From: Gammaproteobacteria bacterium
GTDB taxonomy: Bacteria > Pseudomonadota > Gammaproteobacteria > HyVt-429
Length of the DNA: 64,000 nucleotides
Direction: 5' to 3'
Assembly (NCBI GenBank): GCA_013152415.1
Contig: JAADGI010000019.1
Coordinates: 130,000-193,999 of the forward strand
Shown here one piece after another: positions 1,022 through 14,566 of this stretch. Below the pieces are notes generated by a model. The model was not told where the DNA came from. It did not search any database and saw only the letters and a list, made by a program, of their open reading frames with translations. Made by a program: the position numbers and the translations under genes. The first letter of the stretch is position 1. Every line of letters begins with the position of its first letter.

Positions 1022-2431
1022 TCAGTGACTGTAGTAATCGTCAAAGTCAGGACTGGAGTAGTTTTCAAAGCGCGTAAACTCACCGAGAAAGGTCAGCCGC
1101 ACCGTGCCGATGGGGCCATTACGTTGCTTGCCGACAATAATTTCGGCAATACCCTTTTCATCGGTATCGTCATTGTACACTTCATCACGGTAGATAAAGA
1201 TAATCACATCGGCATCTTGCTCAATGGCACCCGACTCACGCAAGTCGGACATGACCGGAATTTTCTTTTTTCCTGGCCGTTGTTCCAGGGCGCGATTCAA
1301 CTGCGACAAGGCAATCAACGGCACATCAAGCTCTTTGGCCAGGGCCTTCAGCGAACGGGTAATGGCAGAAACCTCGGTGGCGCGGTTTTCGTTGCTATCC
1401 CCGGACTGCATAAGTTGCAGGTAGTCGACCACAATCAAGCCAAGCCCGTGTTCATGGTCCCGGGCCAAACGCCGTGCCCGGGCGCGTATCTCCAAGGGGG
1501 TCAACGCCGGGGTGTCATCAATGTAGATAGGGGCTGACCCTAGCAGGTGTGCCGCCGAACTCAGCCGGGGCCAATCATCATCATTGAGCTTGCCGGTTCT
1601 GAACTTCTGCGCATTGATACGCCCGGTAGAGGCCAGCATACGCATGGCCAACTGGCTCTCAGGCATTTCCATGCTGAAGATGGCCACTGGCAGTTGGTGC
1701 CCCAGGGCGGCATTCTCGGCGATGTTCATGGCCAGGGCGGTCTTACCCATGGAGGGCCGGCCAGCAATGATAATGAGGTCCGCTTTCTGAAACCCCGAGG
1801 TCAATTCATCCAGATCTTTATAGCCGGTGGGTACACCGGTAATGGGGTTATCGGATTGTGATAGCAAATCGATACGATCCATCACCCCGGGCAGGGCCGC
1901 CTTCATGGACCGGAACCCTTTCTGGGTCTGGGTGCCATGCCGGGCCAGCTCAAAAATCTCCTTTTCTGCGGCATCCAGAATTTCGTCTGGGCGCCGCCCT
2001 TGAGGACTGTAAGCACTTTGGGCGATGCCATTGGCCACCTCAATCAAGCCCCGCAATACCGCCCGTTCGCGAACGATTCGGCCATAGGCCTCAATATTGG
2101 CCACACTAGGGGTGTTTTTGGCCAAACCACCAATGTAGGTCAAGCCGCCTGCGGCCTCGAGTTGGCCATTTTTTCCCAGCCACTCGGATACCGTCACCAC
2201 ATCAGCCGGGGAGTCAGACTCACACAAGCTGCGTGTGGCGGCGAAGATGAGACGGTGGTCGCGGCGATAAAAATCACTCTCCGCCACCAGATCGGCGATC
2301 TGTTCCCAGCGGCGAAAATCGAGTAACAAGCCCCCCAATACCGATTGCTCAGCCTCCAGGGAATGAGGTGGCAGCTTTAGCGTATCCGTATCCGGATCGC
2401 TACGCTGGGGCAGATAGACGGGCTCCTCCAA
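1022..2431 (-). CDS. dnaB: replicative DNA helicase DnaB
   Basis: Track ORF 1022..2464 (480 aa) has the PPHSLEAEQSVLGG N-terminal motif, the Walker A GRPSMGKTA, and the RecA-like C-domain. The true start is probably TTG at about 2431, preceded by GGAGG. The ATG-extended N-terminus would overlap the rplI terminator. Confidence 0.9.
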   Translation of the reverse strand: MEEPVYLPQRSDPDTDTLKLPPHSLEAEQSVLGGLLLDFRRWEQIADLVAESDFYRRDHRLIFAATRSLCESDSPADVVTVSEWLGKNGQLEAAGGLTYIGGLAKNTPSVANIEAYGRIVRERAVLRGLIEVANGIAQSAYSPQGRRPDEILDAAEKEIFELARHGTQTQKGFRSMKAALPGVMDRIDLLSQSDNPITGVPTGYKDLDELTSGFQKADLIIIAGRPSMGKTALAMNIAENAALGHQLPVAIFSMEMPESQLAMRMLASTGRINAQKFRTGKLNDDDWPRLSSAAHLLGSAPIYIDDTPALTPLEIRARARRLARDHEHGLGLIVVDYLQLMQSGDSNENRATEVSAITRSLKALAKELDVPLIALSQLNRALEQRPGKKKIPVMSDLRESGAIEQDADVIIFIYRDEVYNDDTDEKGIAEIIVGKQRNGPIGTVRLTFLGEFTRFENYSSPDFDDYYSH

Positions 2432-2449
2432 TTTTCCTCCGCAAATACA

Positions 2450-2490
2450 AATAAACAACGACAAAACAGCCGGGCTGTCGCCTCCCGGCC
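2450..2490 (-). terminator. rho-independent terminator downstream of rplI
   Basis: On the minus strand, GCCGGGAGGCGACAGCCCGGC (6-bp GC stem) is followed by TGTTTTGTCGTTGTTTATTT. Confidence 0.5.
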
Positions 2491-2637
2491 TGGGTTCGGT
2501 TTATTGTACTTAACTACGGCGGCGCTGAGCAGTCTTGACAAGACCGGATTTCCGATGCGCACTACCGGCTAACGGAACCCCAACTTTTCGTCCAGGCTTG
2601 CTGGTCAATAAAAATACAGGGGCACCCCCTAAAAATA

Positions 2638-3087
2638 CTAGGCTTCACCCACAATGGAGACAATAATGTGGGCTGCCACCTCGGGATGAAGGGAGAGTTT
2701 AATCTCATGGTCCCCCACCACCTTCAGCGCACCGTCGGGCAGTAGTATTTCGGCCTTGGCCAAGTCAAACCCTGCCTCAGTGGCAGCACTGGCGATGTCA
2801 GGGGCGCCGACAGAACCAAACAGCTTGCCCTCTTCACCCACCTTCATAAGTATCTGCACCGTGACACCGTTGAGTTTCTCACCCCGTGCACTCGCCGTCG
2901 CCAGGGACTCGGCACCTGCCACTTCCAATTCCGCGCGTCGGGCTTCAAACTCTTTGAGATTGGCTGCAGTGGCCGGTACGGCCTTGCCCTTGGGCACAAG
3001 ATAATTGCGGGCATAGCCGGCCTTTACAGAGACCTTGGTACCGAGATCACCCAGGTTGCGTACTTTTTCGAGCAAAATGACATCCAT
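2638..3087 (-). CDS. rplI: 50S ribosomal protein L9
   Basis: [36 protein letters not shown] is a typical L9 N-domain. The length is 149 aa. Confidence 0.95.
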
Positions 3088-3144
3088 CAAATAGTCCTCA
3101 TCATCAGTTCACGGGCATGGTTCTTGGCATGCCCGTTGGGGCCA

Positions 3145-3372
3145 CTAGTCGTGCTGATCGCTGTAGGGCAACAAGGCGATGTAACGCGCCAGTTTAATGG
3201 CCCGTCCCAGTTGCCGCTGATAGCGTGCCTTGGTGCCGGTATTGCGGCTGGGGATAATCTTACCGCTCTCGCTGACATAACCCTTCAGGGTCGCGATATC
3301 CTTATAGTCGATCTCATCGACCCCAGCGGCAGTAAAACGACAAAACTTTTTACGTCGAAAATAACGTGACAT
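3145..3372 (-). CDS. rpsR: 30S ribosomal protein S18
   Basis: [55 protein letters not shown] is an S18 signature. Confidence 0.95.
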
Positions 3373-3374
3373 AT

Positions 3375-3902
3375 CTAGGCCTCCTCAGGAACAGGTTGAT
3401 CTGATGGCTTTGCCTCGTCCACCCCGGATTCGGCCGTAGCTGCATTCGCATCGGGGGTATCTGTACCTTCTTCTTTGCCATCTGCGGCAGACTTCCCGTC
3501 CTCGCTGGCCTCTTTGTTATCCGCGGCAGGTTTCGCATCCTGGCGGTCTTCCTTGCTCTCTGAGCCGGAATCCTCGTCGTCACGGGTGTCTCTGGCCAAA
3601 GGCGACGCCTCAGTGATGGCCTTATCTCGTTTTAGCACCAAGGAGCGAATCACCGCATCATTAAACCGAAATGCATTCTCCAGCTCATCAAGGGAATCCT
3701 GACCACACTCTATGTTCATTAACACATAGTGGGCCTTGTGGATTTTATTGATGGGATAGGCGAGTTGGCGGCGACCCCAATCTTCCAGACGATGAATCTG
3801 GCCTTGGGTACCTTCAATCATAGTGCGGTACCGATCGATCATCGCTGGTACCTGCTCACTCTGGTCAGGATGGACCAGGAAAACAACTTCGTAATGACGC
3901 AT
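3375..3902 (-). CDS. rpsF: 30S ribosomal protein S6 with long acidic C-terminal tail
   Basis: [25 protein letters not shown] marks the S6 core. There is about 70 aa of D/E/K/A-rich tail. It directly abuts rpsR, with no priB between them. Confidence 0.95.
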
Positions 3903-4370: not shown

Positions 4371-4832
4371 ATGACCCCCTTTCAAGCACCAAGCCCATCT
4401 CGCCACACCACGACACGGAATTGCAATGTGGTGACAGGATTACGGGAAATGGCCCGTCGGCGGGCCCTGTGGATGGATGTAACAGGGGATTGTATGGCAC
4501 CACAGCTCAATGCCAACCAGCAGGTCTGCGTCATCAACCGCCGCCTCTATTGGCCTGGTGATGTGGTGGCCTTTCGGGCCTGGGACGGCCAACTTCTGGT
4601 CCATCGGGTGTTGGGATATCGATTTAAAGGGGGCCACCCGGAACTGGTCACCTGCGCCGACCGTGCCAGCAAAAATGATGTACCGATCCAACTCGACCAA
4701 GTCATCGGTAAAGTGGTCGATGTAGCCCCTCCCAGCGACTTGCTCCCAATTTCCTTCTCATGCCGGGTCCGGGCAATCATTCGCTATTACCAACTGGCCT
4801 GGCGACAGATCAAGATACGTCTGAAAACATGA
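4371..4832 (+). CDS. signal-peptidase (S26/S24)-like protein with Cys/His in place of the Ser/Lys dyad
   Basis: VTGDCMAPQL aligns to the SPase I box B (SGSMxPTL) with Ser to Cys. LLVHRVLGY aligns to box D (VKRVIG) with Lys to His. The start is uncertain: ATG candidates are at 4371 and 4449. The stop overlaps the start of the next gene (ATGA). Confidence 0.5.
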   Translation: MTPFQAPSPSRHTTTRNCNVVTGLREMARRRALWMDVTGDCMAPQLNANQQVCVINRRLYWPGDVVAFRAWDGQLLVHRVLGYRFKGGHPELVTCADRASKNDVPIQLDQVIGKVVDVAPPSDLLPISFSCRVRAIIRYYQLAWRQIKIRLKT

Positions 4833-5746
4833 GCTTTGCCGATCGTTTTGTCCTGGATTCAGATCAATTTACCCCATCCTCACCGGGCCAAGCCTTTGGC
4901 AATCATCGGCTGGTGATTGATTTTGCCGGGGGCCCCTACGGATTTGATGGTCTGAGTGCGACACAAACGGATCGCATACGGGAACGCTTCCAAGACCTGT
5001 GTAGTGAGGACACATCCCGGCAAGTCAAAGTAAACACCCTTCTGTATCGCACACAAAACCGGTCTTTCCCTGACTTTGATCTCGACAATTGGGAATACAC
5101 TCTCGATTTTGAATACAAAGAGGCGTCTGTGGGTATTGCCGGCCTAAAATTCTTTGCCTACTTCGACCTCAGGCAGGGCAAGCAAAGCCATCTGTGGACT
5201 TCGACCGAAGATGATGATTATTTTACAGGTGTTTTCGAAAATTACTTTCGTGTAGTGGTGGCCTATCGACTATTAGCCTGTGGCGGAGTCTTGCTACACA
5301 GCGCCGGGGTAATCGATGAGGGCAATGCATACCTATTCTTCGGACCTTCTAACGCCGGCAAGACGACTGTTTCTCGTTTGAGCCAAGACAGTGGCCACAG
5401 TGTCTTGAGTGATGACATCAATGCCTTGCTGGCCGGACCCGCCCAGGATGTAGTCGCTGAAAAAATGCCATTTGCCGGTGAATTAGGTCAAACGGCAACA
5501 CCCAGTGGCACCTATCCGGTGCGCGGCCTGTTTCGACTCCACCAGGGGCCACGCAATGCTGTACGTGATATGCGTCCAAGCGAGGGTATCGCTGCCCTAG
5601 TGGCATGCTCACCTTATGTCAACGCCGACCCCGTCCGCCAGGACAGGTTGTTCGAGAACCTGGAGCACCTGAGCACCATTACGCCGGTACGTCATTTAAC
5701 TTTCTCCCTAGACCAACCTCTTTGGCCTTTACTCACAGGCCACTAA
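4829..5746 (+). CDS. HPr kinase-related P-loop protein (HprK-like C-terminal domain)
   Basis: HSAGVIDEGNAYLFFGPSNAGKTTVSRL...VLSDDINAL shows a GxxxxGKT P-loop followed by an SDD motif, as in the HprK/P C-domain. It is translationally coupled to the preceding ORF. Confidence 0.6.
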   Translation: MSFADRFVLDSDQFTPSSPGQAFGNHRLVIDFAGGPYGFDGLSATQTDRIRERFQDLCSEDTSRQVKVNTLLYRTQNRSFPDFDLDNWEYTLDFEYKEASVGIAGLKFFAYFDLRQGKQSHLWTSTEDDDYFTGVFENYFRVVVAYRLLACGGVLLHSAGVIDEGNAYLFFGPSNAGKTTVSRLSQDSGHSVLSDDINALLAGPAQDVVAEKMPFAGELGQTATPSGTYPVRGLFRLHQGPRNAVRDMRPSEGIAALVACSPYVNADPVRQDRLFENLEHLSTITPVRHLTFSLDQPLWPLLTGH

Positions 5747-5758
5747 AATGAGAGTAAC

Positions 5759-6067
5759 GTGACCCATCTATCCACTGTCTACAAACCGAGAAAGGATGTT
5801 CGCTACCGCATTGTTGCCGATGAGGCTGTGGTTGTACGCCAACAATCAACAGAGGTGCTTGTCCTTAACGAGGTCGCCGCACGTATATTACAGCTTCTGG
5901 ACGCACAGACTACGGTTAATGAATTGATCCATGCATTGGAAGCGGAGTTTGATATCGGCCCATCTCAACTTGAACACGATGTCATGGCTTTCATCAAGGA
6001 ACTTTTGAATGCCGGAGTAATTATGCCGGCAACATCCAACACGCCAAAAAGTAGCGATGAACTTTAA
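5759..6067 (+). CDS. PqqD-family protein (RiPP recognition element)
   Basis: 102 aa. YRIVADEAVVV...LNEVAARILQLLDAQTTVNELIHALEAEFDIGPSQLEHDVMAFIKELLNAGVI matches the PqqD/RRE pattern. Confidence 0.75.
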   Translation: MTHLSTVYKPRKDVRYRIVADEAVVVRQQSTEVLVLNEVAARILQLLDAQTTVNELIHALEAEFDIGPSQLEHDVMAFIKELLNAGVIMPATSNTPKSSDEL

Positions 6068-6085: not shown

Positions 6086-6364
6086 ATGAATATCACGCCA
6101 TCGACTCTGTTGAAAAAAAAATCCGACATCAGGCACCGAACTATTGATAATGAAGGCATTATCATGTGCCAGAATTCGGCAGACATTATCGCGGTAAATG
6201 CGGTTGGCAGCCGCATACTTGAACTCATAGACGGGCACAAAACTATTGACGACTGTCTGGCCATACTTGTTAACGAGTTTGACGTTGAGCCGTTGCAACT
6301 GCAACAGGACTGCCTGGATTTTATTTTAGACCTGATGCAAAACGATATTCTGGAATTGGCCTGA
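6086..6364 (+). CDS. PqqD-family protein (second tandem RRE)
   Basis: 92 aa. HRTIDNEGII...VNAVGSRILELIDGHKTIDDCLAILVNEFDVEPLQLQQDCLDFILDLMQNDIL is a paralogue of the preceding ORF. Confidence 0.75.
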   Translation: MNITPSTLLKKKSDIRHRTIDNEGIIMCQNSADIIAVNAVGSRILELIDGHKTIDDCLAILVNEFDVEPLQLQQDCLDFILDLMQNDILELA

Positions 6365-6387: not shown

Positions 6388-7515
6388 ATGCCTACGCTAC
6401 TAGAAAAACTCAAGTCCAAGGCTGTGGCCAATAACCAGCTTCTTTCTGTAACCCTGGAACTCACCTATCGCTGCAATCTGGATTGTTTTATCTGCTATAA
6501 CGATCGTGACACCCAGGGCCAACTATTATCTTTAAAGCAATACAGGTCATTATTATTGTCGCTACAGAAAATGCAGGTGATGTTTCTCACCCTGACCGGC
6601 GGCGAACCCATGCTCCACCCGGAATTTTGGCCTATTGCTCAATATGCCCATGACCTGGGGTTTGTTGTGCGCCTTAAAACCAACGGTCACGCCCTTAACG
6701 ACAAACTGGCACTGAAGTTGAGAGAAGAAGTTGACCCGTCCATGGTGGATATCAGCATCCATGGTGCCAGTGCCGATACGCACGATAGGCAAACCAAGGT
6801 CCCAGGCAGTTTCACAAGACTGATGAGAAATCTTGAGATTCTGAATGGCTACGGGGTGAAGGTAAATTTGATGATGACCATAAGCCAATGGAATTTCTCT
6901 GAATTGGAAAGAATCCAGTCTCTAGCGGACTCATTGGGATTTCACTTGGATGCCTCTTCCACCATTACACCACGAGACAACGGGGATCGCATGCCCCAGT
7001 CCATTTCAATATCGTCTGAACAGACACGCCAATTGATAAGCCCGCAAACGGATCGTCTGGGTACGCAGGCCGTTCATTTTGACAACAATAGCCAACCTGT
7101 TTCAGGCACCCTGAACAAAGAAAATACTGCTGCTACAAAAGCAGACGAGCCGCCTGTTAACAAGCAATGTGGCTCAGGCTCATCTATTCTGGTCATTGAT
7201 CCCTATGGCCACGTTTACCCTTGCATGCAACTGCGCCGATTACTGGGAAATATTCACCATCAATCAATTGAAGAAATCTGGAGCCATTCACCGTCCCTCA
7301 AGGAAGTGCGAGACCTGTCCGCTGCGGCCAAACAATTGGTGGATTCATATGGAGAGGGATCAGAATACCTGGGCTACTGCATGGGATTGGCTGAACTGGC
7401 AACTGGTGATCCGGTTAAGATCTACCCACAAGCACAGCAACACTTCGAACTCACCCGAAAACTGCAGCGAGAAAGAATCCTCAAAAAACTGAGTCGATCA
7501 GTAACCCTTCGCTAG
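6388..7515 (+). CDS. radical SAM / SPASM-domain peptide-maturase-like enzyme
   Basis: CNLDCFIC is a CX3CX2C radical SAM motif near the N-terminus. GGEPMLHPEF is a SAM-binding motif. The C-terminal Cys-rich region (CGSGSS...YPCMQL...GYCMG) is typical of SPASM auxiliary clusters. Confidence 0.85.
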   Translation: MPTLLEKLKSKAVANNQLLSVTLELTYRCNLDCFICYNDRDTQGQLLSLKQYRSLLLSLQKMQVMFLTLTGGEPMLHPEFWPIAQYAHDLGFVVRLKTNGHALNDKLALKLREEVDPSMVDISIHGASADTHDRQTKVPGSFTRLMRNLEILNGYGVKVNLMMTISQWNFSELERIQSLADSLGFHLDASSTITPRDNGDRMPQSISISSEQTRQLISPQTDRLGTQAVHFDNNSQPVSGTLNKENTAATKADEPPVNKQCGSGSSILVIDPYGHVYPCMQLRRLLGNIHHQSIEEIWSHSPSLKEVRDLSAAAKQLVDSYGEGSEYLGYCMGLAELATGDPVKIYPQAQQHFELTRKLQRERILKKLSRSVTLR

Positions 7516-10700: not shown

Positions 10701-11922
10701 TGGGATTTACATTCACCGGATCAATGCCAAGATCATCGGCCCGGGTCAGTCCTGATGAATTGCTGATGGTGATGTAATCAATACCCGCACCGAAGGTATC
10801 CGTTGCCATCTGACCTTCATTGGCACCGGAGGTCTCCACCACAAACAAAATCCGGGAACCCGAATTGCTACCGCTTTCGGGGGTATCAAGGGCAAACATC
10901 AAACCGGTATAAGGGTCAAAGGCCATGGCATCTACATCGGTGACGATACCAGAAGAAGTGCTGCCATCGGAGCCTGAACCAATGGGATTGAGCAACGGAA
11001 AAGTCGCACCCGAGGAGCGGTCAACCCGATAGATCTGGCCGCCGCTGGCGGTATAAAGCGTGCCGTCATCGGGGTCCATGGCCATAGTCTCGGCACCCCT
11101 GACACCATTGGCACCGACTACACAACTGCGACCGGTGTTGATATTGGCATCGGGGTTACCGCCGACACATTCAACCGGATCGGCAGCCGTTGGATTATCA
11201 TCAATGAGGTGGGTATAACGTAATAGATTGTCAGCATCCGAAATCAGATAGCAGATTTGACTCACAGGGGGTGCCAAATAGCCGGCAAATTCGACATGCA
11301 AGCGGGCAGCCTGGGTACGCCTGCCATTATAGGACTCTGCGGTACGCTGGCATGCGCTAGAGGCACAAGCACTACCCGCTTGAATAACAAATGTCATCGC
11401 GTTGCCGGCACTCCAACCACTGCGGTCGACAATTTCCTGGACGATGCTGGTCAGATCAGGGGTCCTTTTGTGCTCATCGTCACTATCGGCGACGTTCCAG
11501 GGACTGATTGACGACCAGGGGACGGTTGCCGAGGTCAGTGTACGACCTGAAATATTGTCGCTGGTGCTGAAGGTGACTGAATTGTCTGTATCTTCGCCGT
11601 TGATCACCACATTGGTGGCACCACTATCATTTTCATCTACGGTAAATTCGATATAGGCACGGGTAATACTTGTACCCTGGGGAACCTGTAAGTCCTGAAA
11701 TCGCATACCAACAAGTTGTTGGGTACTGCCATCAAAGACCAGCTCCAAATCAGAACTGGTGATGTACATGGAACCGGGGGGTGAACCTGAAAATTGCTCT
11801 TCCGCGTCGTCGGTACTCTGACTGACAATACGGTCGAGCTGGACCGCACTGGCAGGGACGCTGAATCCTAGCAGCAGTAAGCTCAGAAAAAACACCCCCC
11901 ATCTGCGGGAGGCCAGGATCAT
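7759..11922 (-). CDS. large secreted peptidase C25 (gingipain/clostripain-fold)-like protein
   Basis: Signal peptide MILASRRWGVFFLSLLLLGFSVPASA, so the start is taken at the internal Met. The C-terminal about 450 aa show NYRGHG (His) followed by SALTCSVGRFE (Cys), the order expected for the C25 His/Cys dyad. A central, extremely basic K/R-rich linker reads KRAKRMGKKYAHH...KLKKEKHRNRDRGRGR. Confidence 0.7.
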   Translation of the reverse strand: MILASRRWGVFFLSLLLLGFSVPASAVQLDRIVSQSTDDAEEQFSGSPPGSMYITSSDLELVFDGSTQQLVGMRFQDLQVPQGTSITRAYIEFTVDENDSGATNVVINGEDTDNSVTFSTSDNISGRTLTSATVPWSSISPWNVADSDDEHKRTPDLTSIVQEIVDRSGWSAGNAMTFVIQAGSACASSACQRTAESYNGRRTQAARLHVEFAGYLAPPVSQICYLISDADNLLRYTHLIDDNPTAADPVECVGGNPDANINTGRSCVVGANGVRGAETMAMDPDDGTLYTASGGQIYRVDRSSGATFPLLNPIGSGSDGSTSSGIVTDVDAMAFDPYTGLMFALDTPESGSNSGSRILFVVETSGANEGQMATDTFGAGIDYITISNSSGLTRADDLGIDPVNVNPNASGYGRFWISSPSNLYAVDWTSGSNTVAPVDYGAFADGGGTTADMEGLSFAYNSATATSTLYGLTGNAGPNRIRNRLWEIIIPASPGGPTVAVAQVTDTGSGTEGWPLHGGRSSNSRGAGDYEAVECAFKPRGTTYVSLASFMARTVDGGTQLEWRTTSQIGTLGFHLKRKDPDTGKYKRINDEILPALLNTPQGGSYVFMDSGAVSGETYRYKLIEVEATGKKHRYGPFTVTVDGEGYVSDKPSGYKRAKRMGKKYAHHAQEISPKQLKRLDKSKLAKRHAKLKKEKHRNRDRGRGRVKITVKEAGLYYVDAAQAADLLGLGSAQFRKLLKHRRIRLTNRGKSVAYIKARANTGLYFYAEALESNFTDENVYWLSRGKGKQVHSRKGRRTGPAPDGQSFLSRVQAEQDVVPVTVTATDPAGDFWHWDVIIAGAASKVFTIQAAELASVTDEVSLNVNLQGYSNDAKVELDHHIKVDVNGQRVGDGYLSGTDAATLTFSFSQDLLQEGDNSIELGGLLDTGVAYSYVYLDSLELNYHRSYRALNNQLLLRGDGNEVITVTGFSDTNIFVLDISRPNRPKRIKGVRVQQAGTAYQVSFRPSSPTAEYFVVANTAAKSAIAMVAEKATHLKRRRNSADYLLIAPQSLMAGAQVLADYRQAQGLSSKVVSLEDVYNTFGYGLRSPVAIKSMLEYVRHAWSGVPRFVVLVGDGTFDYLDHWQVGGNLLPPLLVATPFGGIMASDNAYADVVGDDGVPEFAIGRIPVLNAGELAVVIDKIKRYEASTTLSSVTMLADKRDQSAGEFAVDSNALLTLLPQNISVDKIYLSDSLPIDQARNRLFDGLAQGTSWLNYRGHGGLDRLNALLMSSDVPTLVNDLYPIVSALTCSVGRFEIPGFNALGEDLVLRSGGGAIAVWAPSGQSLDSEALRLNQELFQAVFDTGTETLGEAIVQSLGEYRARTGSFAYIPKIYILLGDPGLTLRH

Positions 11923-12566: not shown

Positions 12567-13709
12567 TTGACCCCTCTACCCGTTTACTTAGACATACTCT
12601 CTGGCCATCTGGCTTCTGAAGACTATAACCTGCCCAGGCACTGGCATGAGCACGATTGGCAGCGTTACCTGGACCTGGCTCAAAACCATGGTGTATTACC
12701 CCTTGTCCAGGACCGATTATTAAACGCAAACCATACCGTACAATCCCCACCTTCCATAAGGTCTGCCATTGAACAAGGCCTAAAAAACCAGGCCATCCTG
12801 GAAATTCTGCAAACACTGGAACTACAACGTGTTTTAGGTGCATTTAATAAAAACAACACCCCGGTCCTGGTGTTTAAGGGGGGTGCCCTTGCCCACAGCC
12901 ACTATCCCGAGGCCAAACTACGCCCCCGGGATGATACTGACCTGTTAATTGGGCAATCAAATCGTGAACAATCTGCAGAAATTCTTGAGGTACTTGGCTA
13001 TAGCGCCCAAAACACCATTAGTGGACGTCGCATCATGCACCAGTGTAACTATAGCTATACCGATCAGCAGGGCTGTCCCCATGTGGTCGACTTACACTGG
13101 CGCCTGAGTAATCCGACTGCGTTTTCTGAGCTGTTGGATTTTGAGAGTCTGTGGCAACGCTCGGTGCTGATTCCAGTTCTTGGCCAAGGTGCACGGTGTC
13201 CGACCCAAGTCGATGCGCTATTGATTGCATGCATCCATCGTCTCGCCCATCACCACAATAATCATCGATTGATCTGGCTGATGGACATTCACCTGCTGCT
13301 AACGGCTCTCAGCAAGTCGGAGTCATTGGAATTTGCCCGACGGGCACGAGAGATCGGCGTAGCAGCCATTTGTACGCAGGGGCTAAAACTCAGCCGGGAC
13401 TATTTTAACACCAAGCTCTCTCCCGCCCTGCTCAAAATACTGTCCCAAACCGAAGCCACGAAGGTAAGTAAGGCAGAGAGCCATACCCGTAAATACCTTA
13501 ACAAAGATAGAAGCCACTGGGATAACTACATAGATGACTTGCGTGCGCTACCACACTGGCGGGCCCGAGTGGCTTATCTTCACGAGACCTTGTTCCCGGA
13601 TGCAGATTACTTGCTCGGTCGCTACAATACCCGCCACCGAATCTTACTGCCCATACTGTATCTGTATCGCCTGCTACGTGGCTTTCTCAGGCTACTGCAA
13701 AAACGCTAG
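12567..13709 (+). CDS. uncharacterised nucleotidyltransferase-family protein (PF14907-like)
   Basis: 380 aa with a TTG start. The N-terminal region (LDLAQNHGVLPLVQDRL) and central NTase-like segment (VLVFKGGALAHSHYPEAKLRPRDDTDLLI) resemble the family that co-occurs with PqqD/radical SAM/HprK-like cassettes. It is divergent from the C25-like gene. Confidence 0.6.
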   Translation: MTPLPVYLDILSGHLASEDYNLPRHWHEHDWQRYLDLAQNHGVLPLVQDRLLNANHTVQSPPSIRSAIEQGLKNQAILEILQTLELQRVLGAFNKNNTPVLVFKGGALAHSHYPEAKLRPRDDTDLLIGQSNREQSAEILEVLGYSAQNTISGRRIMHQCNYSYTDQQGCPHVVDLHWRLSNPTAFSELLDFESLWQRSVLIPVLGQGARCPTQVDALLIACIHRLAHHHNNHRLIWLMDIHLLLTALSKSESLEFARRAREIGVAAICTQGLKLSRDYFNTKLSPALLKILSQTEATKVSKAESHTRKYLNKDRSHWDNYIDDLRALPHWRARVAYLHETLFPDADYLLGRYNTRHRILLPILYLYRLLRGFLRLLQKR

Positions 13710-13747: not shown

Positions 13748-14566
13748 CTAATAGCCTTGAGATTCAGGGTCGAGATTCAGATCGTAACTATCAAGCCGCT
13801 CTACCCGAGTCTCGATCCTGCCATCGGGAAAAAGATCCAGTCGGCGATAACCGGGAGGTGCGGTATCCACCGTAAAATCGCTACTGAGAGGTTTAAACTG
13901 AAAACAGGTGGACGGTGAGCTGAGTAACTGCACACCATTGCGTTGTTGGGCCAACTTCTGATGCACATGCCCCCAAACGACTGCCTTCACTTGTGGGTGC
14001 CGATCTAATACTGCAAACAAGGCATCACTATTGTTAAGCCCGATGGGCTCCATCCAATCACTACCCATAGTGACAGGGTGATGGTGCAAACACACCAAGG
14101 CATGCTTGTCGGGAAATTCAGTCAACCACTCCTCTAACTTCTTCAGTTCCGCTTCACCTAATTCACCATGTACATGGTCAGAAACGGTGCTGTCCAACAA
14201 AATAATCTGCCAAAACCCCAATTCGATACGCTTATCGGCACTCACCTGACCCCCGGTCAGGGTATCTTGCATCATGGTAAGGTTGTCGTGATTGCCTGGA
14301 ATCCAGTAGGTCGGCACCTTCAGAGACGCAAAATTGCTTTGCAATCTCCTGTAAGTCTCTTTGCCCCCGTCTTGGGCCAAATCACCCGTGGCCAACACCA
14401 CATCCGGCGGCCATTCATCTTCTTGCGCCCAACCGAGGACGGTCTCAAAGCTTTTCTGAGTGTCCACCCCCATCAGTGTTTGATGGGGCGCTTCGAATAG
14501 GTGAAAATCCGAGATCTGCAGGACGCGGATGGGCCCATCCACGGTATCAGATTTTTTGAAGTCCAT
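13748..14566 (-). CDS. cpdA: 3',5'-cyclic-nucleotide phosphodiesterase (metallophosphoesterase)
   Basis: IRVLQISDFHLF, GDLAQDG, GNHD and VWGHVHQ are calcineurin-like metal-binding motifs. The length of 272 aa fits CpdA. Confidence 0.85.
   Translation of the reverse strand: MDFKKSDTVDGPIRVLQISDFHLFEAPHQTLMGVDTQKSFETVLGWAQEDEWPPDVVLATGDLAQDGGKETYRRLQSNFASLKVPTYWIPGNHDNLTMMQDTLTGGQVSADKRIELGFWQIILLDSTVSDHVHGELGEAELKKLEEWLTEFPDKHALVCLHHHPVTMGSDWMEPIGLNNSDALFAVLDRHPQVKAVVWGHVHQKLAQQRNGVQLLSSPSTCFQFKPLSSDFTVDTAPPGYRRLDLFPDGRIETRVERLDSYDLNLDPESQGY

Follow-up and report, generated by a model that had tools for sequence, protein, structure and literature searches.

Introduction

The signal peptidases of type S26B, which include human SEC11A and SEC11C, the archaeal signal peptidase I and SipW (TIGR02228), use a Ser nucleophile and are anchored in the membrane, and in canonical signal peptidases the active site faces the periplasm or the lumen of the endoplasmic reticulum (ER). 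In Bacillus subtilis the genes for TapA and TasA, the substrates of SipW, adjoin the SipW gene, and the nickel superoxide dismutase protease SodX (TIGR02754) is a soluble Ser peptidase of the S26 family with one dedicated substrate, whose N-terminal propeptide it removes. The LexA-like Peptidase_S24 proteins have a Ser/Lys dyad, an N-terminal DNA-binding domain and a self-cleavage site. In the signal peptidase complex of humans Ser56, His96 and Asp122 of SEC11A make up the catalytic triad, and Asp116 is the salt-bridge partner of Arg97 (bioRxiv 10.1101/2020.11.11.378711). Here we describe a small peptidase-like protein of this fold with Cys at the nucleophile position, encoded in a stretch of 64,000 nucleotides of gammaproteobacterial DNA (assembly GCA_013152415.1, contig JAADGI010000019.1, positions 130,000 to 193,999 of the forward strand; hereafter the window). 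We think it rather probable that this protein is a soluble, cytoplasmic S26B derivative with a Cys15-His52-Asp77 triad, serving as leader peptidase of a cassette for a ribosomally made, post-translationally modified peptide (RiPP).

Two kinds of cassette bear comparison with the one in the window. Leader processing in lasso peptide clusters is carried out by a PqqD-like B1 protein and a transglutaminase-like B2 protease. Lasso clusters may also tailor the other end of the precursor, where a homologue of HPr kinase phosphorylates the Ser at the C-terminus and a nucleotidyltransferase decorates the phosphate (PMC8498205). The SynChlorMet cassette (ScmC, ScmD, ScmE and ScmF) brings together an ScmC-like gene, a PqqD-like gene and two radical S-adenosylmethionine (SAM)/SPASM genes; in the literature searched for the names ScmC and SynChlorMet we found no paper on it. 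Nor did the literature searched yield a description of the cassette reported here or its precursor, or any protein of the S24/S26 (LexA/signal-peptidase) superfamily that naturally has the Cys form, and a 2026 structural survey of that superfamily makes no mention of cysteine.

Results

Gene, fold and active-site residues

The stop-to-stop frame at 4371-4832 of the window (+ strand) reads ...WMDVTGDCMAPQLN...GQLLVHRVLGY..., or at greater length ...ALWMDVTGDCMAPQLNANQQV...WDGQLLVHRVLGYRF..., and contains letter for letter the two motifs on which the original prediction was built (VTGDCMAPQL and LLVHRVLGY). The frame is longer than the gene itself. Its start is most likely the ATG at 4449 (MARRRALWMDV..., 127 residues) and not 4371, because its two nearest homologues (95% and 74% identity) are each 127 residues long and begin at the same Met with an N-terminus of MAR(R/Q)...; a purine-rich GGGAA also lies upstream of this ATG.

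Matches of the peptidase to curated models are modest. Pfam Peptidase_S24 is passed marginally (E 3.8e-5; 23.8 or 23.6 bits against a gathering threshold of 23.3), and the best NCBIfam match, the archaeal-type signal peptidase I model TIGR02228 (E 2.9e-8, 33.8 bits), falls below its cut-off of 51.85. A word-indexed search for relatives returned few sequences and a profile search 25, and a family profile of 26 members was searched against all PDB sequences. Human SEC11A came first (E 2.4e-10) and SEC11C next (4e-10), followed by Staphylococcus aureus SpsB, other bacterial signal peptidases and LexA, and judged by these profile matches the resemblance to S24/S26 peptidases is beyond chance. An AlphaFold2 model computed on the 26-member alignment (predicted local distance difference test 84.8, predicted template modelling score 0.75) has a beta core, with a helix at the C-terminus (residues 103-126), and the top solved structures found with it by Foldseek (SEC11C, LexA, lambda cI, SipA, SEC11A and SpsB) all belong to S24/S26. 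Since the Pfam, NCBIfam, PDB-profile, AlphaFold2 and Foldseek matches concur, the assignment to the S24/S26 fold is secure, and the profile matches, model and structure search thus bear out what had been proposed from two motifs.

The profile alignment to SEC11A places Cys15 on Ser56, His52 on His96, Arg53 on Arg97, Asp71 on Asp116 and Asp77 on Asp122. Box B of the peptidase, V-x-G-D-C-M-x-P (G-D-C-M-A-P in the window protein), aligns with V-L-S-G-S-M-E-P of SEC11A, and box D, L-V-H-R-V-L, with I-V-H-R-V-L; Asp71 and Asp77 lie in box E. Aligned to SpsB, the Cys falls on Ser36 and the His on Lys77. Both alignments agree with the original prediction in its two motif matches and in its placing of Cys at the nucleophile and His at the general base (S56/H96 in SEC11A, S36/K77 in SpsB). 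That prediction had gone on to propose a Lys-to-His replacement on a Ser/Lys scaffold, and here the comparison leads elsewhere: the nearest relatives, the ER, archaeal and SipW peptidases, carry His natively, and the Arg and both Asp residues are conserved along with it. Because those peptidases use Ser-His-Asp natively, Ser-to-Cys would be the only real substitution, and by this alignment the only departure of the site from the His-using ER/archaeal/SipW type. Likewise, of the proposed Cys/His dyad the two residues stand at their active-site positions, but a Cys-His-Asp triad fits better in view of the conserved Asp. We therefore describe the site as a putative Cys15-His52-Asp77 triad, with Arg53 and Asp71 as a putative structural salt bridge as in SEC11.

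Conservation of the site and exchange of Cys and Ser

A HMMER scan of 1.84 billion cluster representatives returned 453 relatives of the peptidase at E <= 1e-10, and loci were collected by scanning one genome per GTDB species with a 12-sequence alignment of Cys forms, using patterns that excluded the Cys itself. The species scan gave 67 peptidase loci, nearly all in Acidobacteriota and mainly in Thermoanaerobaculia. At the nucleophile position 57 of 69 loci have Cys, 11 have Ser and one has Gly, the codons being TGC or TGT for Cys and TCG or AGC for Ser; His52 is present in 68/69, Asp71 in 69/69 and Asp77 in 68/69, and Gly13, Met16, Pro36, Gly37, Asp38, Arg53 and Gly87 are invariant. The picture is the same among the top 150 cluster representatives taken together with the window protein, where His52 and Arg53 occur in 151/151, Asp71 and Asp77 in 150/151 each, and the nucleophile position holds Cys in 127 and Ser in 17. 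It is thus Cys or Ser in 144/144 full-length representatives, and homologues conserve both positions, as the original prediction would require. Seven entries (P0101, P0124, P0129, P0137, P0146, P0156 and P0165) appear to lack a nucleophile because their automatically annotated gene calls start at the conserved Met16, just after the Cys.

Among 240 non-redundant homologues 195 have Cys and 36 have Ser. Cys was originally thought to be rare; within the family it is the majority form (about 85%), and the Ser forms occupy the same cassette. A neighbor-joining tree of the 240 sequences was rooted on two membrane-anchored proteins, P0022 and P0024, which both score above the TIGR02228 cut-off. Cys and Ser forms are interleaved in it, the root state is Ser, and parsimony requires about 16 Ser/Cys changes, a figure that comes from a rough tree of a short protein and is best read as several to many. 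Because Cys and Ser are the only residues accepted here, next to an invariant His-Arg and two invariant Asp residues, the position has the substitution pattern of a nucleophile and not of a metal ligand or disulphide partner.

The single Gly among the loci belongs to an orphan paralogue (locus L050, 888-1328, +) with Gly in place of both Cys15 and His52 and Asn in place of Asp77. Its contig carries no cassette genes, and the same metagenome-assembled genome (MAG) has an intact Cys copy at another locus (L018). L050 appears to be a decayed copy from which the whole catalytic set was lost together.

A peptidase lacking a membrane anchor

The true S26B members P0022 and P0024 have a hydrophobic stretch at the N-terminus, unlike the window peptidase, in which no hydrophobic segment was found: the highest Kyte-Doolittle mean over 19 residues is 1.07, and the protein has no membrane anchor. 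Its residues 103-126 form a basic amphipathic C-terminal helix. Because it has no hydrophobic segment and is made beside cytoplasmic enzymes, the peptidase should be cytoplasmic.

The cassette

The peptidase gene is followed by genes for an ScmC-like P-loop protein, two PqqD-family proteins and a radical SAM/SPASM maturase (Table 1). Its stop codon overlaps the ATG of the ScmC-like gene (ATGA at 4829-4832), which suggests that the two are translationally coupled. The order peptidase, ScmC, PqqD, radical SAM/SPASM recurs in essentially every locus long enough to display it, for Cys and Ser forms alike: it surrounds the Cys forms P0002, P0004, P0006 and P0007, which come from a related Acidiferrobacteraceae MAG and other metagenome contigs, and the Ser forms P0019, P0020 and P0021. 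Across 76 sequences ScmC was found with 73, PqqD with 69 and radical SAM with 64, the misses being short contigs. The originally proposed link to a RiPP-like cassette is accordingly a tight one, the gene order being the same around orthologues.

Similarity of the ScmC-like protein to described families is weak. It matches the ScmC model TIGR04249 below cut-off (E 2.5e-5), PF27840 (ScmC) is recorded on its orthologues, and a search with the ScmC profile reached the P-loop region of phosphoenolpyruvate carboxykinase (PEPCK-ATP) at E 1e-3, the similarity to PEPCK being confined to the P-loop. A search of the PDB with the single ScmC-like sequence gave nothing useful.

Table 1. Positions in the window of the peptidase, its putative active-site residues and the cassette genes
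Feature	Position	Strand	Basis or remark
Soluble S26B-like peptidase, 127 residues	4449..4832	+	Start from homologues, family matches, fold, conservation
Peptidase Cys15	TGT 4491-4493	+	Putative triad nucleophile
Peptidase His52	CAT 4602-4604	+	Putative triad base
Peptidase Asp71	GAC 4659-4661	+	Putative structural pair with Arg53
Peptidase Asp77	GAT 4677-4679	+	Putative triad member
ScmC-like P-loop protein, 305 residues, putative PEPCK/HprK-type kinase	4829..5746	+	TIGR04249, PEPCK P-loop profile match
PqqD-family protein, copy 1 (peptide-binding, RiPP recognition element)	5759..6067	+	PF05402 E 3.3e-17; NCBIfam agrees
PqqD-family protein, copy 2	6086..6364	+	PF05402 E 1.1e-11
Radical SAM/SPASM peptide maturase	6388..7515	+	Radical_SAM E 2.3e-19, SPASM E 1.7e-9; NCBIfam agrees
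Candidate precursor peptide, 58 residues	7539..7715	-	Family in 57 loci
Large secreted protein, C-terminal Peptidase_C25 (gingipain-like) domain, 1426 residues	7759..12039	-	PF01364 E 1.2e-72
NTP_transf_5 nucleotidyltransferase, occasional accessory gene	12567..13709	+	PF14907 E 1.3e-48
Calcineurin-like metallophosphoesterase flanking the cassette	13748-14566	-	

The candidate precursor and its predicted cut

The candidate precursor peptide reads MKTGKTEKKSADDCRSVKRVYEKPAIISREHLEVVA up to the predicted cut and AVCTPGKSIGTPIGMCTIIQGS after it, and its family comprises 56 distinct sequences from 57 loci. Counted from the first Cys as position 0, the family has Tyr or Trp at -18 (57/57), Pro at -15 (57/57), Ile or Leu at -13 and -12, Arg-Glu at -10 and -9, Leu at -7, Glu at -6 (57/57), Ala, Val, Thr or Gly at -5 and Ala at -3 (57/57). 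The core that follows holds exactly two Cys (57/57) and ends in Ser (57/57), so that an invariant motif E-[AVTG]-x-Ala stands ahead of a two-Cys core with a terminal Ser. Conserved basic residues occur in the leader and a conserved Lys in the core; the leader has no hydrophobic h-region, and there is no C-terminal follower peptide.

Within this peptide [A/V/T/G]-x-Ala is the only invariant small-residue motif, and it has the form of a textbook -3/-1 signal-peptidase site. Because it is the sole such motif and fits the -3/-1 rule, we predict cleavage between Ala36 and Ala37, which would leave a core of 22 residues with two Cys and the C-terminal Ser.

Other neighboring genes and distribution

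The gene for the large C25-domain protein adjoins the cassette in 29 of the 76 sequences and NTP_transf_5 in 5 of 76. The C25 protein of the window begins with a signal-peptide-like segment ending in ...VPASA/VQ. On the same strand the C25 gene is followed directly by the precursor gene, and the two may be co-transcribed. No lasso cyclase or transglutaminase-like B2 protease was found among the open reading frames (ORFs) examined in window positions 1-30.8 kb, the remainder of which, up to 30.8 kb, consists of housekeeping genes.

Upstream of the cassette (1022-3902, -) the window carries dnaB, rplI, rpsR and rpsF, a gene order shared with an Acidiferrobacteraceae MAG contig (L001); the host of the window is therefore a gammaproteobacterium related to that of L001. 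The two loci are also alike in having two tandem PqqD genes, where Acidobacteriota loci have one, and in being flanked by an NTP_transf_5 gene together with a metallophosphoesterase gene. The distribution of the cassette is patchy, most members being from Acidobacteriota and that of the window gammaproteobacterial, which suggests that it spread by horizontal transfer.

A second conserved small peptide, MKKAYRKPSLRRLGLLRQITRFSF, was seen about 2 kb past the cassette in one Acidobacteriota locus (L013, 10855-10998, +) and, counting that locus, in 11 from this phylum (L013, L011, L017, L028, L029, L031, L033, L039, L046, L057 and L074). Beyond it L013 has two ORFs, one PqqD-like and the other transglutaminase-like (11329-11754). 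These two look like a lasso-type B1/B2 pair, yet the core of MKKAYRKPSLRRLGLLRQITRFSF would then be only 3-4 residues long.

Discussion

Proposed role of the peptidase

The peptidase is encoded with a precursor, a recognition element and a maturase in nearly all loci, as is typical of RiPP leader peptidases, and we propose the following course of events. A PqqD protein would bind the [Y/W]xxPxIL motif of the 58-residue precursor, as is expected, by analogy with other RiPP recognition elements and the motif of lasso leaders, for a leader part of the form YxxPx(I/L). The radical SAM/SPASM enzyme would modify the two-Cys core, by crosslinking or otherwise, and the ScmC P-loop protein would probably modify the invariant C-terminal Ser. 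The peptidase would then cleave the motif E-[A/V/T/G]-x-Ala behind its invariant Ala. In this reaction Cys15 would form the thioester acyl-enzyme, His52 would act as base and Asp77 would orient His52. The reducing cytoplasm would keep the thiol active, and this may explain why Cys is tolerated or even preferred once the enzyme had left the membrane. A thiol on this scaffold would be chemically plausible given that the engineered S90C mutant of Escherichia coli leader peptidase reportedly keeps its activity and becomes sensitive to thiol reagents. Two further roles were considered and set aside. A macrocyclase or transpeptidase function for the thioester does not agree with an S26-type acyl-enzyme, which would hold the leader and not the core, nor with a precursor lacking a C-terminal follower; and a LexA-like self-cleaving regulator is ruled out by the missing N-terminal domain.

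Several considerations weigh against our proposal. The scores of the peptidase to curated models are marginal or under cut-off; its residue equivalence to SEC11A is drawn from a sequence-profile alignment and a shared fold; its catalysis and substrate are read from sequence, and the cut site from its motif. The kinase role of the ScmC-like protein is putative, being argued from weak P-loop similarity and from analogy with the lasso kinases. Finally the C25 protein, a cysteine protease and frequent neighbor, could be the real processing enzyme or an additional one.

Of the alternatives, the one that survives best, though we think it unlikely, is that the peptidase is an active Cys/His enzyme acting on a different bond or substrate, be it elsewhere in the precursor, in trimming after export, or in another protein of the cassette. 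The motif-based choice of cut site leaves room for this, as do the conserved basic residues of the leader and the conserved Lys of the core. S26 peptidases, however, choose small residues at -1 and -3, and the precursor offers a single invariant motif of that kind.

Less likely still is a non-catalytic module comparable to Streptococcus pyogenes SipA, which would hold the Ala-x-Ala of the precursor so that the radical SAM enzyme or a different protease could act. The activity of the family members is a predicted one, which leaves room for such a pseudo-peptidase, but proteins of the SipA type have lost their catalytic residues, whereas here hundreds of clusters at 50% identity keep Cys or Ser, His, Arg and both Asp residues almost without exception. 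The copy in which three catalytic residues have gone together (L050) is one that lies outside the cassette.

That the peptidase is a dedicated signal peptidase for the neighboring secreted C25 protein, in the manner of SipW, seems to us improbable to a somewhat greater degree. The closest curated family is indeed the archaeal/SipW type of signal peptidase I, the C25 protein has a signal-peptide-like N-terminus, and its gene adjoins the cassette in those 29 sequences. Without an anchor or signal sequence, however, the peptidase would have its active site on the wrong side of the membrane for this task. The C25 gene is missing from many loci whose 6-kb downstream flank is complete, whereas ScmC, PqqD, radical SAM and precursor are nearly universal, and the gene to which the peptidase appears translationally coupled is ScmC, the C25 gene being on the opposite strand.

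Least probable is a metal or redox site made of Cys15, His52, Asp71 and Asp77, with the peptidase as partner of the radical SAM step, since, although these are typical metal ligands and the substrate core has two invariant Cys, the Cys alternates only with Ser (36/240, in the same cassette), a poor metal ligand unable to form a disulphide, and each conserved residue maps to a catalytic or structural residue of SEC11.

Comparison with described systems

The S26B enzymes are the best sequence relatives of the window protein (hhalign probability 94% to the true member P0022) and have in common with it the fold, the His-Arg of box D and the Asp of box E; the predicted site in the precursor also obeys their -3/-1 small-residue rule. 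They differ in having a Ser nucleophile and a membrane anchor, whereas the window peptidase has Cys, is predicted to be soluble, is only 127 residues long and ends in the basic helix. It is therefore no S26B member by nucleophile, by anchor or by curated score. It also differs in being encoded in a RiPP cassette, with a presumed substrate whose leader has no hydrophobic h-region, and in its expected cytoplasmic location, whereas the active site of canonical signal peptidases lies toward the periplasm or ER lumen. A Ser-form member of the cassette family, P0021, passes TIGR02228 with 65.9 bits against 51.85, and the family therefore grades into proteins annotated as signal peptidase I.

Boxes B and D of Peptidase_S24 also align with the window protein, which just passes the Pfam model, but the Ser/Lys dyad of the LexA-like proteins is replaced by Cys, His and a partner Asp, and the window protein has only about 5 residues ahead of its first strand, where they have a DNA-binding domain and self-cleavage site. 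SodX is a precedent for an enzyme of signal-peptidase fold dedicated to one substrate, the gene of which lies nearby. Its model TIGR02754 is matched weakly (E 4.9e-4) by a Ser-form family member; SodX is nevertheless only distantly related, and it is a Ser enzyme with another substrate and context.

Lasso leader processing likewise pairs a PqqD-type protein with a separate Cys-His-Asp protease. The YxxPx(I/L) element of the precursor, about 16 residues before the predicted cut, is one that we take to resemble the lasso leader motif. Tailoring of the terminal Ser in lasso clusters recalls the invariant terminal Ser, the P-loop kinase-like gene and the occasional NTP_transf_5 gene of the present cassette. 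The two differ in the fold of the protease, which is transglutaminase-like in lasso systems and S26-like here, and in the main maturase, which is here a radical SAM/SPASM enzyme, with no lasso cyclase found. The SynChlorMet cassette shares the set of ScmC-like, PqqD-like and radical SAM/SPASM genes, with weak matches to TIGR04248-04251. These lie far under the equivalog cut-offs (in bits, ScmC 23.8 against 125, ScmD 34.2 against 100 and ScmE 91.2 against 400), the window has one radical SAM/SPASM gene against two, and it adds the peptidase and an identifiable precursor.

Implications

A wider proposal, for which we see about as much to be said as against it, is that the family represents the first natural thiol-nucleophile lineage in MEROPS clan SF, which has so far been described as purely serine-type. 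It would be a cytoplasmic offshoot of the SEC11/SipW peptidases with a Cys-His-Asp site, which has switched many times between Ser and Cys without a change of task. That task would be to remove, under guidance by PqqD, the leader of an uncharacterized class of radical-SAM RiPP whose core has two invariant Cys and a probably phosphorylated C-terminal Ser.

The analysis also defines a widespread RiPP cassette, together with its candidate precursor, a predicted cut site and a tractable protease of 127 residues. The cassette is found chiefly in Acidobacteriota; the host of the window is a relative of the Acidiferrobacteraceae. The Cys forms are missed or scored too low by present database models, and gene calls sometimes begin at the Met that follows the Cys. 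The peptidase is a signal peptidase without a membrane anchor that appears to act on a leader peptide in the cytoplasm, where the reducing environment may be what permits a thiol. Hundreds of orthologues in one conserved context, differing mainly in Ser versus Cys, amount to a natural experiment on what a swap of nucleophile requires. Should Cys15 prove to be the working nucleophile, the clan of LexA and the signal peptidases would become a mixed Ser/Cys clan, like the chymotrypsin-like clan PA.

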